DNA of 53,178 nucleotides from assembly GCA_018063165.1 (NCBI GenBank), contig JAGOQU010000004.1, forward strand, positions 23,039 through 76,216. The letters are read 5' to 3'. The notes under the pieces were generated by a model. That model saw only the letters and a list, made by a program, of their open reading frames with translations, was not told the DNA's origin and did no database searches. Position 1 is the first letter of the stretch. Every line of letters begins with the position of its first letter. The translations under genes were made by a program, and so were the position numbers. Positions 4,784-52,400 of the stretch are shown here, piece by piece. The DNA is from Minisyncoccota bacterium (lineage in GTDB: Bacteria; Patescibacteriota; Minisyncoccia; Phycocordibacterales; UBA5272).

Positions 4784-4920
4784 ATAGTATACTACTTTTT
4801 TTATATGTCCAAAATATTTTGCAACCTTTTTACAGTATGTTTTGTTAATCGCCTATTTAAATCTTGACGAAAGCGAACGTCTCACGACGTGATTTACTAA
4901 TCAGTAGTTGGCTTTCTGTT

Positions 4921-4979
4921 CGCGCACTAATATATAAAACCCCGAAACTTAGTTTCTGGGTTTTATATATTAGTGCGCG
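4921..4979. repeat. 59-nt palindrome whose termini copy the tRNA-Ile acceptor 3' strand
   Basis: CGCGCACTAATATATAAAACCCCGAAACT-t-AGTTTCTGGGTTTTATATATTAGTGCGCG has 29-nt arms with one mismatch. The ends equal the CGCGCACTA of the tRNA-Ile 3' end. Confidence 0.8.
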
Positions 4980-4991
4980 AACCAAGATTCG
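4971..4991 (-). repeat. direct 21-nt duplicate of the tRNA-Ile 3' end (T-loop to discriminator plus CTA)
   Basis: TAGTGCGCGAACCAAGATTCG is identical to 5135-5155, the 3' end of the tRNA-Ile gene. It diverges inside the T-loop into GTCATG. Confidence 0.85.
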
Positions 4992-5043
4992 GTCATGCAG
5001 ACAATTTTTGATTACAAAAATAGAAGTCTGCCCGACCCGCATT

Positions 5044-5089
5044 CGAATCTTGGCGTAAGTGACGCAGGTCACTTACTGTCCACGCACTA
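5044..5089 (+). repeat. inverted copy of the tRNA-Ile 3' end interrupted by a 22-nt hairpin
   Basis: CGAATCTTGG-c-[GTAAGTGAC GCAG GTCACTTAC]-tgtc-CACGCACTA reads like the sense tRNA-Ile T-loop/T-stem and acceptor 3' strand. It lies on the strand opposite the gene. Confidence 0.8.
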
Positions 5090-5134
5090 AAAAAAAGAAA
5101 ACTCGAAGCAAATGCTTCGAGTTTTCTTTTTTTT
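5090..5134 (-). terminator. terminator hairpin directly 3' of tRNA-Ile
   Basis: AAAAGAAAACTCGAAGC-aaat-GCTTCGAGTTTTCTTTT, a 17-bp stem flanked by A and T runs. Confidence 0.7.
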
Positions 5135-5136
5135 AG

Positions 5137-5209
5137 TGCGCGAACCAAGATTCGAACTTGGGACCGCTCGAGTATCAGTCGAGTGCTCTACCAGCTGAGC
5201 TATTCGCGC
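5137..5209 (-). tRNA. tRNA-Ile (anticodon GAU)
   Basis: Hand-folded cloverleaf. Acceptor GCGCGAA/TTCGCGC, D arm GCTC..GAGC, anticodon arm CTCGA-CTGATAC-TCGAG, T arm CCAAG-TTCGAAT-CTTGG, discriminator A. No encoded CCA. Confidence 0.92.
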
Positions 5210-17873: not shown

Positions 17874-18389
17874 TTATTCACCACATATCTTAATAAAAGC
17901 TTCTCGTAATTTAGTTTTATCATGACGAATAAAACTACGGAGACCACTCACAGTATCTGCTTTGTTATACGTAATAATTGTATCTGAAAGTAAATTATCT
18001 CGTATTACCCTTGTGTCATTACCCATATCATCTACAGTAAGAACACCATCACCTTCTTCCATTTTATAATACATAATTTGATCTTCGGACGGTGTACAAT
18101 TATTAATCAAAATAATATCGACAGATCTACCTAAATAGCTTTCTATGTCATACACATAATCACTCACTTTCCAATGTAATGTATGTCCTTGTTTATTTGT
18201 TAAATTAACAGGAAATATAAGTTTTGCTTGTGTGTTACTTATAGCATCTTTACATCCATTAACAATAAGATTTGGTATCACAGAACAATAATAATTTCCT
18301 GGGCCAAGAATAATGTAATCGGCTGACAAAATAGCTTCTTTTGCATGCTTATTAAGTGCTACATCTTCTGTATATTCAACAGAAACCAT
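17874..18389 (-). CDS. yvcK: YvcK/CofD-like (UPF0052, gluconeogenesis factor family), C-terminal half
   Basis: ADYIILGPGNYYCSVIPNLIV and NLTNKQGHT match the second half of YvcK. It is in the same frame as 18399..18854, separated only by TAA-GCT-AAA-GGT. Confidence 0.8.
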   Translation of the reverse strand: MVSVEYTEDVALNKHAKEAILSADYIILGPGNYYCSVIPNLIVNGCKDAISNTQAKLIFPVNLTNKQGHTLHWKVSDYVYDIESYLGRSVDIILINNCTPSEDQIMYYKMEEGDGVLTVDDMGNDTRVIRDNLLSDTIITYNKADTVSGLRSFIRHDKTKLREAFIKICGE

Positions 18390-18398
18390 ACCTTTAGC

Positions 18399-18854
18399 TT
18401 AAATATCAGATGAATTAATACAATGCTCGCCTTTAAGGCAAGAATCATCTTTCATAATCATACGAAGTTCTGCTTTATTTGTAGTTATAGGTATTACTTT
18501 TCCTTTTACTTTTAAAATCTCTGAAGCTATCTCTACGCCAGAACCAAAATCACCAGTTACTTTTTCAAGTGCAGCAAGAAAAATATTTCCAAAAGAGTGA
18601 CCGGTAAGAGTTCCTTCAGAAAATCTATACCCCATAAGACTTCTTACTATATCAGTATGCTCACTAAGAGCAATAAGACACTGTCTAACATCTCCCGGAG
18701 GAAGCACACCTAGCTCATCCCTGAGGACACCAGTAGAACCACCGTCATCTGCCATAGAGACAAGAGACGTGAGAGAAATATTTGGAATATCTTTAAGACC
18801 AGAAAGTATCGTATAACTTCCTGTACCCCCGCCAATTGTGACAACAGACTTCAT
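18399..18854 (-). CDS. yvcK: YvcK/CofD-like (UPF0052), N-terminal half ending at an in-frame TAA
   Basis: MKSVVTIGGGTGSYTILSGLK...SMADDGGSTGVLRDELGVLPPGDVRQCL is the YvcK N-terminus. The stop codon is at 18399-18401. Confidence 0.8.
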   Translation of the reverse strand: MKSVVTIGGGTGSYTILSGLKDIPNISLTSLVSMADDGGSTGVLRDELGVLPPGDVRQCLIALSEHTDIVRSLMGYRFSEGTLTGHSFGNIFLAALEKVTGDFGSGVEIASEILKVKGKVIPITTNKAELRMIMKDDSCLKGEHCINSSDI

Positions 18855-20652: not shown

Positions 20653-21648
20653 CTATTTAGAAATAATATTAAGAATGAGTTTTATAATCTTTTCTTTATC
20701 ATTCGGATCACTCTCAGCTACGAGTACGGTAATTGCGGTGAGCGCTTGCGGGGTGAGCTTGTTACTATCGAGCAACTTTGTTTCTTTGAGGAACCATATA
20801 AATGCAAAAGCACCTGATCGTTTGTTACCATCAGTGAACGGGTGATTCTTCACCATAAAATATAATATATGAGCAGCCTTTTCTTCAACTGTTGGATACA
20901 TATCCACTCCACCGAATGATTGCATCACATTACCAACAATTCCTGAGATAGACCCCTTACTGCGTTCATTGCCAAAGACTTCTGTCGTCTCACCTCTTTC
21001 GATGAGTGCATTTCTGAGTTCATTCAAATTTTTGGAAACTTTGTCCACACTAAGCGTCACTTTCTTTTTTGTAAGCTTTCCTTCTGGTAACAGTTCTTTA
21101 TCATATGCATCGAGCGAAAGCCATGTATCCGCGAATAATGAAATAAGTTCTACAGCATCCTTTTGGTTAACTGCGGAACTTTCTGGTAGTAATTTTTTAA
21201 CATCATCAACAATAGAAAGAAAGTGGGCATAGTTTTTTACTATTCGTTTCTTATCCACCACGAAACCATCTACAATGTAGTTACGTAATGTTTTTGTTGC
21301 CCACTTCCTGAATTCAATTGCTACTTTTGAATTTGTTCTGTACCCAACCCCTAAAATTACATCAAGTGAGTACAATGTTACAGGTTTATCTGAAATAGCA
21401 TTATGCATTTTTTGCATATTGCTTTTTTCTTCAATTTCCCCGTCTTTAAATAAATTTTTAATGTGACGAGAAACAACAGACTGGTCCACACCAAAAATAC
21501 TAACAATTTCTGCTTGTGTAGCCCACACCGTCTCACGACCAACATCACCTTTTAATTCAATTGCCCCAGACTTAGCTTGATAGATAACAAGATTATTTTT
21601 AATTGGAGCTTTTACACTATTTGTCTTAGTTGTATTTTTTTTCTTCAT
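20653..21648 (-). CDS. RhuM-like N-terminal domain fused to a Fic/Doc (death-on-curing type) domain
   Basis: N-terminal half: IVSIFGVDQSVVSRHIKNLFKDGE...LDVILGVGYRTNSKVAIEFRKWAT (RhuM-like). C-terminal: HPFTDGNKRSGAFAFIWFL (Doc-type variant of the Fic motif). Its stop lies 3 nt upstream of the dinB start. Confidence 0.75.
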   Translation of the reverse strand: MKKKNTTKTNSVKAPIKNNLVIYQAKSGAIELKGDVGRETVWATQAEIVSIFGVDQSVVSRHIKNLFKDGEIEEKSNMQKMHNAISDKPVTLYSLDVILGVGYRTNSKVAIEFRKWATKTLRNYIVDGFVVDKKRIVKNYAHFLSIVDDVKKLLPESSAVNQKDAVELISLFADTWLSLDAYDKELLPEGKLTKKKVTLSVDKVSKNLNELRNALIERGETTEVFGNERSKGSISGIVGNVMQSFGGVDMYPTVEEKAAHILYFMVKNHPFTDGNKRSGAFAFIWFLKETKLLDSNKLTPQALTAITVLVAESDPNDKEKIIKLILNIISK

Positions 21649-21740
21649 ACTTTAATTGTACTCTTCTCATCGCTAGCATTCTATAGAACAAACAGTTAAC
21701 ATCTTTTTGTGCTTTTGACTATACTTAGTATACTTAACAA

Positions 21741-22949
21741 ATGAAACCAAAATTTAACATTGATCAATTTATAAATGAAATCGAGATAACTGACACCAAT
21801 CAGAGCGAAAGAACAAAAGCGATTGAGCGAGAAAAAGTTGTAACCCTCTATAGGAAACTTTTAGACAAAGTTATCGAATGGGCAAATAAAGAAGGTTTAG
21901 AAATATCCTCAGTTAAACGCTTAGGAGGTGGTTTTGTAAATGCTGTTATTTTAGTAGAAACTGTTGAAGGTAAATCTGTAGTAGTAAAAACATTTGAGGA
22001 CAAAGAAGATGCCTCTAATAACAAGAAAGCTAAAACTATTATCGACACTATATCCACCTCAGATGAGCCCATGTTAAGTAAAGTGCTTTCTTGGTTAGAT
22101 GAAACAACTATTGTGACTGAAAAAGTTGAAGGAGAATCTATTAGAAAAAAAATGGAAAAACTAAACAGTGATAGCATTTCTCAAAATGAAGCTAATGGAT
22201 ACCTTAAAACACTTGGGGCAATGCTTGGTAATTTACACGAAAGAACGGAACAAGGTGCTAAGGAATATGATACATCTTTATTTGAACATGACAGAGAAAA
22301 GATTAAATCACATTTGAGTCGTTACATCCCTGACCCAATATCCATTTCGGTTTCTTTTGATAGTTTGTGTGAAATGATCGATAGAAACACTGAGCCGGAT
22401 TATATATCATACGTCCACGGAGACGCACACGTAGATCAGTTTTTTTGCGCACCAAATGAAGACGTTGTAACTATAGTTGATTATGATTCAATGCGACAAG
22501 GTGACCCAATGGCAGATCTAGCTAGAACTGTGAGCAGTATACGAGCGTGGTCAAAGAAAATTAACATGAGTCAAACAAAAGAAAGTGATCTTGTCAGGTC
22601 GCTCGTAAAAGGATACCGTGAAACACGTGTAGAAAAAATAGACAGTGAAGATTCTGAATTTGATTATATTAAAGTTATTTGCTACGAAATCAGACTCTAT
22701 TTAATTGAAATGCCTCAGTTCAATGAATTAAGAAACAAAATCAAAGCAAAACTTGTAAACCCTGAGAATCAGTTATTTTCTAGTGAAAAAGCTTTGTATA
22801 CGCAAATTTCAGCAAACCCAACAATATTAGAATCAGAAAACTTTAGTATTTTTACTCAGGACGAATTAAGTAAAATGAAACACATGTGTGATGTATTAAA
22901 CCGTATTAATGAATGTATTGAATATTTAATCCATATTGAAACGGACTAA
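21741..22949 (+). CDS. phosphotransferase (APH/choline-kinase-like protein kinase fold) family protein
   Basis: GGGFVNAV nucleotide-loop-like motif, HGDAHVDQF catalytic-loop-like motif and IVDYD metal-binding motif. Confidence 0.7.
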   Translation: MKPKFNIDQFINEIEITDTNQSERTKAIEREKVVTLYRKLLDKVIEWANKEGLEISSVKRLGGGFVNAVILVETVEGKSVVVKTFEDKEDASNNKKAKTIIDTISTSDEPMLSKVLSWLDETTIVTEKVEGESIRKKMEKLNSDSISQNEANGYLKTLGAMLGNLHERTEQGAKEYDTSLFEHDREKIKSHLSRYIPDPISISVSFDSLCEMIDRNTEPDYISYVHGDAHVDQFFCAPNEDVVTIVDYDSMRQGDPMADLARTVSSIRAWSKKINMSQTKESDLVRSLVKGYRETRVEKIDSEDSEFDYIKVICYEIRLYLIEMPQFNELRNKIKAKLVNPENQLFSSEKALYTQISANPTILESENFSIFTQDELSKMKHMCDVLNRINECIEYLIHIETD

Positions 22950-29175: not shown

Positions 29176-29247
29176 GCTTCCATGGTGAAATGGATATCAC
29201 AACGGTCTTCGGAACCGTCGTTCCAGGTTCGAATCCTGGTGGGAGCA
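29176..29247 (+). tRNA. tRNA-Arg (anticodon UCG)
   Basis: Hand-folded. Acceptor GCTTCCA/TGGGAGC, D arm GTGA..TCAC, anticodon arm ACGGT-CTTCGGA-ACCGT, T arm CCAGG-TTCGAAT-CCTGG, discriminator A. No CCA. Confidence 0.9.
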
Positions 29248-29275
29248 CAAAAATAAGAGTGAAACGAGTACTTTT

Positions 29276-29321
29276 GTACTCCCACAGCATATCACCTGCG
29301 TGATATGCGTCAGGATTCGAA
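29276..29321. repeat. inverted copy of the tRNA-Arg 3' end interrupted by a 22-nt hairpin
   Basis: GTACTCCCAC-a-[GCATATCAC CTGC GTGATATGC]-gt-CAGGATTCGAA. The flanks are the reverse complement of the tRNA-Arg acceptor 3' strand (CTCCCA) and T-stem/loop (11/11). Confidence 0.8.
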
Positions 29322-29471
29322 AGTTCGGAGTATGTTTTGCTAGCAAGCAAAACAACGAGAAGCGGCTGATTAGTAAATCATGCCATGAGGCCAAAGCGAG
29401 TAAATTTTTACGAAAAAAATTTAACTTGTGGGAGAAATTCCTGGTGGGAATACTTACATCAAAAATACTTC

Positions 29472-29489
29472 GTGACCGAATCCTGGTGG
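29472..29489 (+). repeat. direct partial copy of the tRNA-Arg 3' end starting in the T-loop (GTGAC|CGAATCCTGGTGG)
   Basis: CGAATCCTGGTGG is identical to tRNA-Arg positions 29230-29242. A second looser copy, TTCCTGGTGGGA, lies at 29438-29449. Confidence 0.7.
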
Positions 29490-29569
29490 AATTAAGTTTA
29501 AGAAACGTTACACATGTAACAAGCATGGTTAATTTCCAATGTTTCACTGATAAAGAAATTAAGAACTCA

Positions 29570-29583
29570 GAGGAATCGGTCAC
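29570..29583 (-). repeat. direct partial copy of the tRNA-Gly(GCC) T-loop region preceded by GTGAC
   Basis: The minus strand reads GTGAC|CGATTCCTC, against the tRNA-Gly CGATTCTCC. It forms a 12-nt inverted repeat (1 mismatch) with 29472-29483. Confidence 0.55.
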
Positions 29584-29711
29584 TTCGTCTCGTTTAAGAT
29601 TTATTTTTATTCAAAACTGCGTCCAAGACGTGAATATAGTGACTCAGAATTACTAATTCAAAAATAAAAGACTTCTCGCTTGTTCCAAGAACCGAATCTG
29701 CTGATTCGCCT

Positions 29712-29757
29712 ATTCGATTCTCCACGCAAGCCAAGCGGTTGGCTTGCTTACATACAC
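29712..29757. repeat. inverted copy of the tRNA-Gly(GCC) 3' end interrupted by a 22-nt hairpin
   Basis: The minus strand reads GTGTATGTAA-[GCAAGCCAA CCGC TTGGCTTGC]-gt-GGAGAATCGAAT. GGAGAATCGAA is the reverse complement (11/11) of the tRNA-Gly T-loop/T-stem. The acceptor part has diverged. Confidence 0.75.
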
Positions 29758-29783
29758 AAAATTCTCGTTTCACTCGTATTTTG

Positions 29784-29854
29784 TGCGGCGTAGGAGAATC
29801 GAACTCCTGTCTCAACCTTGGCAAGGTCGTGTTCTACCACTAAACCAACACCGC
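29784..29854 (-). tRNA. tRNA-Gly (anticodon GCC)
   Basis: Hand-folded. Acceptor GCGGTGT/ACGCCGC, D arm GTTT..GAAC, anticodon arm CGACC-TTGCCAA-GGTTG, T arm AGGAG-TTCGATT-CTCCT, discriminator A. No CCA. Confidence 0.9.
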
Positions 29855-30584: not shown

Positions 30585-30589
30585 ATTAG

Positions 30590-30662
30590 TCGGAATGCCG
30601 GGATTCGAACCCGGAGTCACCTGGTCCCAAACCAGGGATGTTAGCCGTTACACCACATTCCG
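30590..30662 (-). tRNA. tRNA-Pro (anticodon UGG)
   Basis: Hand-folded. Acceptor CGGAATG/CATTCCG with C1-G72 as in bacterial tRNA-Pro, anticodon arm CCTGG-TTTGGGA-CCAGG, T arm CCGGG-TTCGAAT-CCCGG, discriminator A. No CCA. Confidence 0.9.
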
Positions 30663-30798: not shown

Positions 30799-30869
30799 GC
30801 GGTGTTGGTTTAGTGGTAGAATGCCTGCCTTCCAAGCAGGAGACAAGAGTTCGATTCTCTTACGCCGCA
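30799..30869 (+). tRNA. tRNA-Gly (anticodon UCC)
   Basis: Hand-folded. Acceptor GCGGTGT/ACGCCGC, anticodon arm CCTGC-CTTCCAA-GCAGG, T arm AAGAG-TTCGATT-CTCTT, discriminator A. No CCA. Confidence 0.9.
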
Positions 30870-30874
30870 CAAAG

Positions 30875-51446: not shown

Positions 51447-52400
51447 TTAGAGGTTTTTCTTTTTTGAATGAAATTTTTCAAACTGATCACGTAAAAACTT
51501 GTTAGTTACGTTAGTATAAATCTGAGTTGTTGCAATAGATGCATGTCCAAGCATCATCTGTACAGTTCTTAAATCTGCACCGTTGTAAAGAAGGTCTGTT
51601 GCAAAACTGTGTCTTATAACGTGTGGCGTACACTTTTTTGCTATACCTGCACGTTCTGCATATTTTGTTACAATACGTTCCACACTTCGTGGGGTAAGGC
51701 GAACCGAATCTTCTTTAACCATTCGAGAATGTGCGCGAGGGGAATGATCAATAAACATAGCTTCATCAATGTCTACACGTGAAGATATGTATTTTTTAAC
51801 GGCTTCTCGTGCTGAGCCAGAAATAAACACAACACGTATCTTACCTCCTTTACCCCTTACAGATATTTCACCCGTTTGTAATTCTATATCTCTATTAAGA
51901 GAGCAGAGTTCTGAAACACGTAATCCTGTAGAAAAAAAGAGTTCTAATACGGCTTTATCTCTAAGACCTCCAATAGTAGAAACGTCTGGTGCTGACAATA
52001 AATTCTCTAATTCTTTTTCTGAGATAAGGTCGAGCTCTCTTTGCTGTGTTTTAGCTAGTTCTATTCTTTCTGGATCATATGAAGAAACACCACGCTTACG
52101 CATATATTTCAGAAAAGCACGAAGCGCTATCAGATGATAATTTTGAGTTTTTTTATCAAGCGTTTCCTGAGCTTGACCTTTTTTAATTTCTCGAGCAGGA
52201 TGTCGATTAAGATATACACGATATTCGCGCATCATTTTTTCTTCAAGAGAAGAAGGGGAGTCTGTAGCTCCGTGAGATGTAGCAAATTCTAAAAAACGTG
52301 TAAGATAATGCTCATAATTACGAACAGTAAGAGGAGATCTTCCTTTTTCAATTTCTATATACTGAAGAAAATCTTGTTTAAGAGAATAAAGAGAATTCAT
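51447..52400 (-). CDS. xerC: tyrosine recombinase XerC/XerD family
   Basis: N-terminal SAM-like domain (YLTRFLEF), and a catalytic domain with GLRVSE, HVIRHSFAT, LGHASIATTQIYT (R..H-R-H..Y). Confidence 0.9.
   Translation of the reverse strand: MNSLYSLKQDFLQYIEIEKGRSPLTVRNYEHYLTRFLEFATSHGATDSPSSLEEKMMREYRVYLNRHPAREIKKGQAQETLDKKTQNYHLIALRAFLKYMRKRGVSSYDPERIELAKTQQRELDLISEKELENLLSAPDVSTIGGLRDKAVLELFFSTGLRVSELCSLNRDIELQTGEISVRGKGGKIRVVFISGSAREAVKKYISSRVDIDEAMFIDHSPRAHSRMVKEDSVRLTPRSVERIVTKYAERAGIAKKCTPHVIRHSFATDLLYNGADLRTVQMMLGHASIATTQIYTNVTNKFLRDQFEKFHSKKKNL

Follow-up and report, generated by a model that had tools for sequence, protein, structure and literature searches.

Small non-coding units behind tRNA genes of Paceibacteria that carry sense and antisense copies of the tRNA 3' end: putative insertion elements specific for tRNA genes

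The question raised by this locus is why the spacer between two convergent tRNA genes, tRNA-Arg(TCG) and tRNA-Gly(GCC), should contain inverted copies of the 3' end of each gene, split by a small hairpin. The spacer lies in a 53-kb stretch of DNA from a Minisyncoccota bacterium (contig JAGOQU010000004.1; G+C 34%), hereafter the window, and a preliminary description made from the letters alone had reported these copies together with a third case at tRNA-Ile. Our analysis placed all three in a family of units of 120-260 nt that encode no proteins and occur downstream of tRNA genes in many related genomes. We see an even chance that they are miniature, non-coding and non-autonomous insertion elements of Paceibacteria, mobilised in trans and specific for the 3' part of tRNA genes, whose site of recombination is a folded single strand that mimics the target.

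Five tRNA genes of the window were recognised by both ARAGORN and Rfam, and none of them encodes CCA:

5136-5209, minus strand: tRNA-Ile(GAT)
29176-29248, plus strand: tRNA-Arg(TCG)
29783-29854, minus strand: tRNA-Gly(GCC)
30589-30662, minus strand: tRNA-Pro
30799-30870, plus strand: tRNA-Gly(TCC)

An exact antisense 11-mer was found downstream of three of the five. Under a chance model for an exact 11-mer within the first 200 nt downstream (190 positions x 4^-11), the expectation is only about 5e-5 per tRNA, and a chance origin of the antisense copies in the window can therefore be excluded. tRNA-Pro and tRNA-Gly(TCC) possess no unit and are followed only by plain terminator hairpins.

The comparative set consisted of 49 orthologous loci from related species recruited with the cca protein, all from metagenome-assembled genomes (MAGs) of the Candidate Phyla Radiation (CPR)/Patescibacteria that bear Paceibacterota, Nomurabacteria, Parcubacteria and similar labels; numbers beginning with L denote individual loci. 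Together with the window and its near-duplicate L001 these provided 140 tRNA genes, 129 of which had sufficient downstream sequence for analysis, and the locus sequence set examined amounted to 769 kb. Aligned trailers showed a common order of parts, which opens with the tRNA 3' part in sense orientation, starting at T-loop position C56, and continues with a loop (L1), an antisense acceptor, a hairpin cassette, an antisense T-stem/T-loop, inner modules and a junction hairpin, after which comes the next sense copy. The cassette comprises 25 nt (A, a 9-bp hairpin usually with a CTGC loop, then GT) and splits the antisense copy at the acceptor/T-stem junction; in about ten units, most of which follow tRNA-Gly, the hairpin is missing and the antisense copy is contiguous. 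L1 takes two forms: in one it resembles a terminator hairpin, and in the other an A-run and a T-run enclose the 12-nt motif GA-NN-GAA-N'N'-GA, in which positions 3/9 and 4/8 co-vary, and 43 of 58 occurrences of this motif lie within 450 nt downstream of tRNAs, that is, in 4% of strand space. In many units the terminator-like hairpin with its T-run separates the tRNA from the remainder of the unit, and the L1 beside the tRNA resembles the native terminator of each locus. Each unit carries between zero and three variable hairpin modules, for which five types were distinguished, and sizes are discrete, with 46-54 nt from the conserved motif to the junction in most copies. The junction hairpin GGTCGCG…TGTGACC is conserved, and the next sense copy starts directly after it, at CGA, to give direct repeats of 13-21 nt that start at C56 (perfect 19-mers in several loci). 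The inverted segments copy the tRNA of their own site and differ between sites. Their acceptor part is the complement of the 3' strand and not a copy of the 5' strand, as in the window the 5' strand has T4 opposite G69 and the antisense copy has C.

In the window, 29249-29489 is a slightly decayed Arg unit, listed here with the sense copy in front of it:

29230-29248, plus strand: proximal sense copy, the tRNA-Arg 3' part from T-loop C56 to the gene end (CGAATCCTGGTGGGAGCAC), one mirror arm
29249-29275, plus strand: loop L1, with A-run, motif GAGTGAAACGAG and T-run
29276-29285, plus strand: antisense copy of the tRNA-Arg acceptor 3' strand, GTACTCCCAC
29286-29310, plus strand: 25-nt hairpin cassette (A, 9-bp stem with CTGC loop, GT) at the acceptor/T-stem junction of the antisense copy
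29311-29321, plus strand: antisense T-loop and T-stem 3' strand of tRNA-Arg, CAGGATTCGAA, 11/11
29322-29476, plus strand: type-1 inner module, ending CGTGAC (3' strand of the junction stem)
29332-29355, plus strand: hairpin B, in the type-1 module
29366-29390, plus strand: nested 25-nt mini-insert, in the type-1 module
29398-29427, plus strand: A/T hairpin, in the type-1 module
29428-29450, plus strand: inner partial sense copies, in the type-1 module
29477-29489, plus strand: distal direct copy of the tRNA-Arg 3' part, CGAATCCTGGTGG, truncated, with native spacer beyond

The inverted copy at tRNA-Arg stands as first described, with the hairpin GCATATCAC-CTGC-GTGATATGC (29287-29308, 9 bp, perfect) between an 11/11 T flank and an acceptor flank in which GTACTCCCAC matches the perfect complement GTGCTCCCAC at 9 of 10 positions, 7 nt of them contiguous. 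The direct copy CGAATCCTGGTGG is immediately preceded by GTGAC, and an additional direct copy, TCCTGGTGGGA, is present at 29439-29449. A 15-mer, CTGATTAGTAAATCA, is common to 29366 in this unit and 4890 at the Ile locus. The nested insert of about 25 nt that occurs at both places, 29366-29390 (plus) and 4878-4904 (minus), was also observed at L003 and L042 (Pro), L042 (Gly), L243 and L247; in it a hairpin, YGATTAGYAAATCR, precedes a stem of 2-5 bp that is closed by a GNRA-type loop (GTGA, GAGA, GCGA, GGGA), its site varies (within a module, in the loop of the 9-bp hairpin or within the antisense T part), and it looks like a still smaller mobile or expansion hairpin.

The facing segment, 29570-29782, is a Gly unit on the minus strand that is more decayed than the Arg unit and is of a type that is a decayed relative of type 5:

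29570-29712, minus strand: decayed inner module, ending GACGAAGTGAC then CGATTCCTC (junction and distal-copy remnant at 29570-29589)
29713-29723, minus strand: antisense T-loop and T-stem of tRNA-Gly(GCC), GGAGAATCGAA, 11/11
29724-29747, minus strand: hairpin cassette, a 9-bp stem with CCGC loop (GCAAGCCAA-CCGC-TTGGCTTGC, 29726-29747), then GT
29748-29757, minus strand: degenerate antisense acceptor 3' strand of tRNA-Gly, GTGTATGTAA, about 6/10
29758-29782, minus strand: loop L1 (AAAATAC-GAGTGAAACGAG-AATTTT)
29783-29801, minus strand: proximal sense copy, the tRNA-Gly(GCC) 3' part from T-loop C56 to the gene end

The same architecture had been proposed here; its T part and hairpin hold, but the acceptor part agrees at only about 6 of 10 positions. 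Similarly, the direct copies that had been reported behind a shared pentamer are clear at Arg and Ile, but the Gly copy consists of CGATTC and a few more bases, is weak alone, and owes its identity solely to relatives in which the junction GAGACGAGGTGAC is followed by CGA. The pentamer itself (GTGAC or ATGAC) proved to be the 3' strand of the conserved junction hairpin. The block noticed in both the Arg and the Gly trailer is the L1 motif, whose 12-mer GAGTGAAACGAG occurs exactly twice in the window, once per trailer.

The Ile locus, reported as the third case, was upheld with its 12/12 antisense T part, hairpin and 19-mer direct copy, and it is an intact type-5 unit followed by an older, decayed unit:

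4992-5135, minus strand: first, intact unit behind tRNA-Ile
5089-5135, minus strand: its terminator-type L1
5079-5088, minus strand: its antisense acceptor
5055-5076, minus strand: its hairpin
5042-5053, minus strand: its antisense T-arm, 12/12
4992-5041, minus strand: its type-5 module and junction hairpin
4973-4991, minus strand: distal direct copy of the tRNA-Ile 3' part, a perfect 19-mer
4857-4972, minus strand: second unit, older and decayed
4930-4970, minus strand: terminator B of the second unit
4918-4929, minus strand: antisense acceptor of the second unit
4878-4904, minus strand: nested mini-insert sitting in the loop of the hairpin arms of the second unit

As had been stated, the hairpins at Arg, Gly and Ile all have 9 bp and a CYGC loop.

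Examination of the trailers of orthologous tRNAs, a check that the preliminary description had suggested, showed that the arrangement is widespread. Within 200 nt downstream, 78 of the 129 tRNA genes have an antisense T-arm copy, and in 60 of these 78 a 9-10-bp hairpin lies just 5' of it, with the loop CTGC in 43 of the 60. Perfect 9-bp hairpins with a CTGC loop were found 48 times in the 769 kb, and each of the 48 follows a same-strand tRNA gene at a distance below 250 nt. When the junction region was searched for with a covariance model, 20 strong hits resulted, every one of them 58-270 nt downstream of a same-strand tRNA, including the Ile copy at window 4980-5054 (55.8 bits), and a search for solitary junction modules outside a tRNA context found none. 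Metagenomes were additionally scanned with a tRNA-independent 18-mer from one module type, yielding 67 matches, approximately half of which were chance matches in high-GC DNA and about 32 of which were genuine low-GC copies, all of them short. These lay behind tRNA-Trp, Arg (GCG, TCT, CCT, TCG), Ser (GGA, GCT), Val, Ile, Thr, Glu, Pro and Gly and add at least 12 further tRNA species that carry units; overall, the same junction hairpin, cassette and loop motif occur behind at least 15 tRNA species in many genomes. Genuine type-5 units at L222 (5780-6300), L243, L206 and L210/L216 follow promoter-like palindromes and tRNA-like 3' ends; neither ARAGORN nor Rfam recognised a tRNA in these upstream sequences, which may be disrupted tRNAs or another RNA gene, and the antisense copies there indicate a tRNA-type tail unlike the sequence now present upstream.

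The family is apparently undescribed, in agreement with the initial impression that this was not a recognised element. Rfam, in gathering and E-value modes, returned only tRNAs or noise for the window, for five loci covering all module types and for the metagenome loci; blastn of the whole spacer against phage and plasmid collections gave no match; and the patterns CATGAACTGCTTCATG and TCGAATAGGGGTCGCG had only chance hits in viral contigs, located in high-GC coding sequence such as capsid-like genes. Literature searches on Patescibacteria/CPR retrieved no described equivalent.

Presence and absence of units at orthologous sites is consistent with insertion. About half of the orthologous sites lack the element, with empty Arg sites in, for example, L005, L011, L013, L025 and L032, and certain loci combine an empty Arg site with a filled Gly site. 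In empty-site relatives the Arg-Gly spacer measures 80-100 nt around a conserved palindrome, CGTTACAYRTGTAAC, which is also found at window 29506-29520, and 29490-29569 of the window is the original Arg-Gly spacer lying between two inserts:

29506-29523, no strand: native central palindrome of the Arg-Gly spacer, CGTTACACATGTAAC, kept in relatives with or without elements

The palindrome is present in nearly all orthologous loci regardless of elements and may serve the convergent tRNA genes as a bidirectional terminator or as an operator. Open reading frames (ORFs) of 118-128 amino acids at 29197-29583 (minus) and 29300-29656 (plus) cross both elements and the native palindrome; the 128-residue frame corresponds to an annotated gene in the public MAG GCA_017992935.1, and these ORFs have very probably arisen as artefacts of annotation.

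Direct repeats that are perfect over 19 nt were found in L026, L010, L045 and at window Ile, and in L026, L005 and L013 the distal copy abuts the native flank. Arrays of two or three units were found at window Ile, L042, L010, L015, L192 and L247. Module types differ behind the same tRNA between species, and one module may recur behind different tRNAs: a 46-nt module is 100% identical behind tRNA-Trp and tRNA-Val in one metagenome and also near Ser and Arg genes, and the copies that share it differ in hairpin stems and L1. In a related strain (L256/L258; European Nucleotide Archive ERZ27249659, ERZ27249664) exactly 169 nt, equal to one unit, are missing behind tRNA-Ile (window 4930-5088); its S7 protein is identical and its flanks are about 93-95% identical as estimated by eye. 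Exact-protein look-ups (YraN, HU, ClpP and a 168-residue protein) found no contig covering strain variants of the Arg-Gly spacer.

The antisense copies correspond to their own tRNA. On average they match it at 10.6 of 11 positions in the T part and 7.8 of 10 in the acceptor part, compared with 8.1 of 11 and 4.5 of 10 for other isoacceptors, and the antisense copy follows the acceptor variants of tRNA-Arg orthologues (GCGGAAGC, GTGGAAGC, GTGGGAGC, GCGGGAGC, GCGAGAGC). The cassette hairpin has double-sided changes at all nine pairs, and G·T accounts for only about 1.7% of its pairs. A derivation of the hairpin stems from the adjacent tRNA was considered and rejected, as a single 8/9 likeness (Arg GGATATCAC vs GCATATCAC) is not general and the same stems occur behind different tRNAs. 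Pairing in the junction stem, assessed over 32 type-5 regions, is 98.6%, and its distal pairs co-vary; for the outer helix between the antisense T part and the distal sense copy the figure is 80.6%. Two positions of the junction stem conserve G·T (30/32 and 29/32), occasionally replaced by A-T or G-C, and half-matches there number 23 G·T vs 2 A·C. This is the sole clean signal of strand asymmetry; a crude count of wobbles between tRNA and antisense copy (23 G·T vs 34 A·C) is uninformative owing to indels and linker bases. Covariance model scores were 46-86 bits on the sense strand vs 15-23 bits on the antisense strand, and these low antisense scores, together with the G·T wobbles, limit the fold to the tRNA-sense strand.

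Predicted single-stranded DNA (ssDNA) folds reached -54 kcal/mol (z = -9.3) for the Arg unit and -65 kcal/mol (z = -13.5) for the Ile unit. Drawn as a circle, the unit is modelled as a branched rod in which a target stem closed by L1, together with a side hairpin, stacks on a junction stem closed by a second loop, with a one-sided bulge of 6-7 nt (AATAGG) between the two stems. Both tips of the rod carry a DNA-type mini-hairpin motif, and the L1 motif contains the GCGAAGC class; GCGNAGC mini-hairpins are hyper-stable in DNA and are found at single-strand replication initiation sites (PMC13037366). The proposal that the structure pairs with or mimics the tRNA 3' end is supported at the level of anatomy by the co-variation of the antisense copy with the tRNA and by these z-scores, and the pairing may act in RNA or in DNA.

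The units have no recognisable gene content and no obvious enzyme nearby. No coding insert was found at the 140 tRNA sites of relatives or in the approximately 32 metagenome copies, and at the 140 sites no insert exceeds 440 nt between tRNA and distal copy. A Pfam/NCBIfam search of 43 window ORFs detected no transposase, and neither a Y1 transposase nor TnpB was found in the window or beside any copy. The window genes have housekeeping functions in replication, repair and DNA uptake (RecG, ComEC, RNase H, DinB, RecJ, YraN and HU), in RNA handling and translation (S7, S12, cca, RNase Y and NusA) and in other processes (pyruvate kinase, ClpP and trigger factor). The only recombinase is an Xer-like tyrosine recombinase of 317 residues at 51447-52400 (minus), located 21 kb away among these genes. 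Its bit scores were 241 for XerD (cutoff 330) and 219.7 for XerA_Arch (cutoff 220), just short of the XerA_Arch cutoff and well short of those for XerC/D, and integron integrase models cover just its residues 235-301. As the sole candidate in the window it is a possible but unproven trans-acting enzyme.

Several observations on the surrounding DNA are recorded here. The cca gene beside tRNA-Arg, whose position had been remarked upon, reflects conserved gene order by coincidence, as the cca/tRNA-Arg pair exists in orthologous loci with and without the element. A CofD-family (2-phospho-L-lactate transferase-like) gene is split into two halves between neighbouring ORFs that do not share a frame (17874-18389 and 18399-18854, minus), which is one of three things: a frameshift, a pseudogene or an assembly error. 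At 20653-22949 a Fic/RhuM-domain protein adjoins an APH-like kinase gene, both accessory amid housekeeping genes, and the public MAG (L257) has a RelB/YafQ toxin-antitoxin pair, likewise accessory, near S7. Contig JAGONQ010000029 of MAG GCA_017992935.1 is 99.98% identical to the window over 10.3 kb. Short-read contigs of the source organism (MAG and Logan: L001, L002, L260) stop at or beside tRNA genes, namely in tRNA-Pro and just upstream of cca, as would be expected if elements repeated around the genome break assemblies.

Beyond these direct observations (anatomy, tRNA association, presence and absence, arrays, co-variation of antisense copy and tRNA, stems on the sense strand only, and absent coding capacity), insertion of a trans-mobilised element can be envisaged as follows. 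The unit would be mobilised in trans as a single strand, most likely of ssDNA, in which the sense and antisense copies pair to form the branched rod and present a duplex mimic of the target beside the junction hairpin. Strand exchange with the tRNA gene would take place at or near the T-loop, after which replication would fix the insert, and the full 3' end retained at the junction would keep the functional tRNA intact. The layout can be written a-O-B-loop-B'-O'-…-X-O-b, with a and b for the tRNA flanks, O for the T-loop part and B for the tail; it is the product expected if a folded strand (stem O-B/B'-O') exchanges one strand with the duplex a-O-b before replication. This follows the folded-strand exchange logic of integron attC and of CTX-phage attP(+) (PMC3442271, PMC4792948). 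Repeated insertion would shift older units downstream, where decay would follow, and the Arg and Gly copies of the window would be seen in that decayed state. A folded single-strand intermediate is favoured because the stems are strand-specific, a bulge on one side faces the junction, the unit is very small, the mini-hairpins are of DNA type and L1 resembles a terminator; a unit of this size would be awkward as a double-stranded circle and thus fits a single-strand intermediate, and a terminator-like L1 would halt co-transcription with the tRNA. On this reading the family is site-specific, non-autonomous mobile DNA, and there is a real chance that its mechanism is novel.

A number of points weigh against this interpretation. 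None of the copies has a linked recombinase or transposase, and neither an autonomous relative nor an excised circle or junction was seen. The direct repeat conceals the cut sites, and the model offers no account of how the two target copies come to match a new tRNA, for which template-switch correction across L1 is a possibility. G·T wobbles and GNRA-like loops suit RNA equally as ssDNA, and no terminator was predicted in the Arg-Gly spacer of the window, where read-through transcription is therefore possible. The cassette hairpins were preselected as hairpins, which makes their figure of 99% paired circular, although the diversity of pair types is not. Both Ile strains retain the same terminator beside the tRNA, a misfit with simple and precise excision at the T-loop. 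At L249 (tRNA-Pro) the direct repeat reaches the terminator loop (47 nt) and the proximal terminator is hybrid, with a 5' arm that is native and a 3' arm that is foreign, and at L045 (tRNA-Arg) the repeat runs through the terminator (about 75 nt); these two suggest other break points or later gene conversion. All three cases could have come about through subsequent recombination among the repeated parts, or through insertion beyond the tRNA or its terminator, the course assumed by the IS200/IS605-like alternative below.

Alternative explanations differ in what they hold to be moving, if anything. Self-retargeting single-strand mobile DNA, in which only the junction hairpin and modules would move and every insertion would generate both target copies from the target itself, strikes us as rather unlikely. 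The antisense copy would arise when a strand folds back across the terminator or loop hairpin and copying proceeds up to the palindromic T-loop; if true, any tRNA gene could be colonised unharmed and the target-templated recombination site would have no known precedent. A function as RNA would make the unit a transcribed tRNA 3' trailer, its antisense copy pairing with the tRNA 3' half or the distal sense copy to build either a long helix or a minihelix resembling a tRNA, in which the 9-bp hairpin would stand in for the D and anticodon arms, and with a role in RNase III, P or Z processing, CCA addition or termination, or as a stable small RNA. Stems restricted to the tRNA-sense strand, two conserved G·U-type pairs in the junction stem, GNRA-type loops (GTGA, GAGA, GCGA, GGGA) in the nested mini-insert, an antisense copy that tracks tRNA changes in apparently orthologous units, and a window Arg-Gly spacer with no predicted terminator would all suit such a role. 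We nevertheless consider it unlikely, as many units place a strong terminator-like hairpin and T-run between the tRNA and the rest, many copies are decayed (including window Gly) and half of the orthologous sites are empty, implying dispensability; the G·T share of the hairpin pairs is low for compensatory evolution of an RNA stem, no Rfam family matches, and direct repeats and tandem arrays are not explained by an RNA role alone.

Improbable to a similar degree is an IS200/IS605-like (HUH Y1) or REP/RAYT-like single-strand element (repetitive extragenic palindromes and their associated tyrosine transposases), in which a transposase would bind the 9-bp hairpin and use the antisense sequence on either side of it as an enlarged guide to the tRNA 3' end. 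Insertion would fall 3' of the tRNA or its terminator and disrupt nothing, and cleavage at the right end of the element would take place in the distal sense copy. The left end of IS608 is ordered target, linker, complementary segment, hairpin, and the units show this same order with a linker of 20-45 nt, one-strand-specific structure, a small size like that of non-autonomous derivatives (palindrome-associated transposable elements, PATEs), an L1 that resembles the native terminator of each locus, and an Ile strain polymorphism that retains terminator A beside the tRNA. However, guides in the IS200/IS605 family have 4-5 nt and not about 21 nt split around a hairpin, the hairpin stems here vary at all nine positions whereas a transposase-recognised hairpin is normally shared by family members, the ten or so units with contiguous antisense copies have no hairpin to bind, and the expected Y1 transposase and TnpB are missing from the window and from the surroundings of every copy. 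Replication template switching at palindromes, of the tandem-inversion-duplication type with junctions in the terminator hairpin and the T-loop core TTCGAA, no dedicated enzyme and modules as secondary insertions, could account for a mirror axis in the loop of the terminator-like hairpin, for antisense copies that stop at TTCGAA and for the L045 and L249 repeats that extend into the terminator, and quasi-palindrome correction would hold the antisense matched to a selected tRNA without function. It is quite improbable in view of the same junction hairpin, cassette and loop motif behind at least 15 tRNA species, of a cassette at the identical junction in 60 copies, and of the fact that no unit was seen in which the antisense runs directly into the sense copy without a junction hairpin. 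The earlier reading of nested attL/attR scars, left by double-strand integrative elements that crossed over in the T-loop and have since lost their bodies, is largely refuted and now very improbable. It was correct in its inserted mobile-type DNA and in repeats that start at C56 and run from the T-loop to the tRNA 3' end, as at T-loop-class tRNA integration sites, and a tyrosine recombinase gene does exist in the window, but that protein is Xer-like and lies 21 kb off among housekeeping genes. The units are not leftovers of larger elements, since no larger insert was found at the 140 tRNA sites or in the metagenome copies, their length is discrete, and a core-type integrase site would have an inverted T-stem half-site to the left of the distal copy, where TGTGAC stands instead. 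Double-strand att scars are rejected as a full account because the antisense copy stays unexplained, as do the cassette and the junction hairpin. A bridge-RNA of the IS110 kind was also considered and rejected, as both guide-like segments are antisense and collinear and a bridge-RNA loop would hold one antisense and one sense guide.

These genomes are among the smallest known, and with at least one unit behind more than half of the sampled tRNA genes, the family constitutes a major unannotated non-coding component. The units are a likely cause of assembly breaks at tRNA genes and account for spurious ORF calls in the spacer such as the 128-residue gene of the public MAG. Each copy holds both sense and antisense of its own tRNA tail, which may represent a new mode of target recognition by mobile DNA, and the short modular target segments, combined with identical inner modules behind different tRNAs, might show that a recombination site can be re-addressed by base pairing alone. 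If fold-mediated movement of the trans-mobilised element were confirmed, it would be the third natural recombination site that exists only as a folded single strand, after attC and CTX attP, and the first made from tRNA sequence.

Comparison with known systems places the element near several of them. As with integron attC cassettes, the units are small and often non-coding, the proposed site is an imperfect hairpin of one strand with an unpaired bulge and extra-helical features, crossover would be near the stem base, and new units would enter at a fixed site and shift older ones to build arrays; an attC-type one-strand hairpin with a bulged spacer is present here in the junction stem, AATAGG bulge, target stem and strand-specific G·T. 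The fixed site is however a tRNA gene and not attI, the stem is made from target sequence, R and L boxes are absent (the T-loop GTTCGAA/GTTCGAT misfits GTTRRRY, and the repeat begins CGA, not TT), and no integron integrase (IntI) lies beside any array. CTX-phage attP(+) and other Xer-dependent elements resemble the unit as modelled in that inverted segments of ssDNA fold into a mimic of the chromosomal target. In the CTX type a host tyrosine recombinase exchanges one strand pair and replication completes integration (PMC3442271). The target here is the tRNA T-arm and tail instead of dif, the unit has 120-260 nt and no genes, and Xer involvement in its movement is only a guess.

The IS200/IS605 elements (IS608, ISDra2), PATEs and REP/RAYT move as a single strand, only one strand being active, as is proposed for the unit; they have sub-terminal hairpins and small non-coding derivatives, and their target or cleavage site is read by DNA-DNA pairing with a hairpin-adjacent segment. 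Hairpins, strand asymmetry and small non-coding size are also seen here. In the unit, however, some 21 nt of complementary sequence flank the hairpin on its two sides, and the sequence of the hairpin is unconserved. Direct repeats of the target are present, where IS200/IS605 elements make no target duplication, but the repeat could be the element's own right end. Tyrosine integrases of the T-loop class, with their cis-mobilisable att-flanked remnants, likewise duplicate the tRNA 3' part, leave the gene intact and accrete units in tandem, and as in tRNA islands direct repeats of the tRNA 3' part flank the insert, but integrase and cargo are absent here, the unit is two orders of magnitude smaller and an antisense target copy is present. 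Miniature inverted-repeat transposable elements and small repeats (RPE, Correia, ERIC) are also short, non-coding, structured and multi-copy, and depend on an enzyme in trans as the units would; the tRNA-associated units are nevertheless not classical miniature inverted-repeat elements, as their inverted segments, if read as terminal inverted repeats, are individual target copies and not conserved across the family, specificity for tRNA is strict, and the repeat is 13-21 nt (47-75 nt in L249 and L045) and not of a short fixed length. Overall, the element works most like the folded sites of the attC/CTX type or the ends of IS200/IS605 elements, and it is set apart from each of them by the features that define membership.

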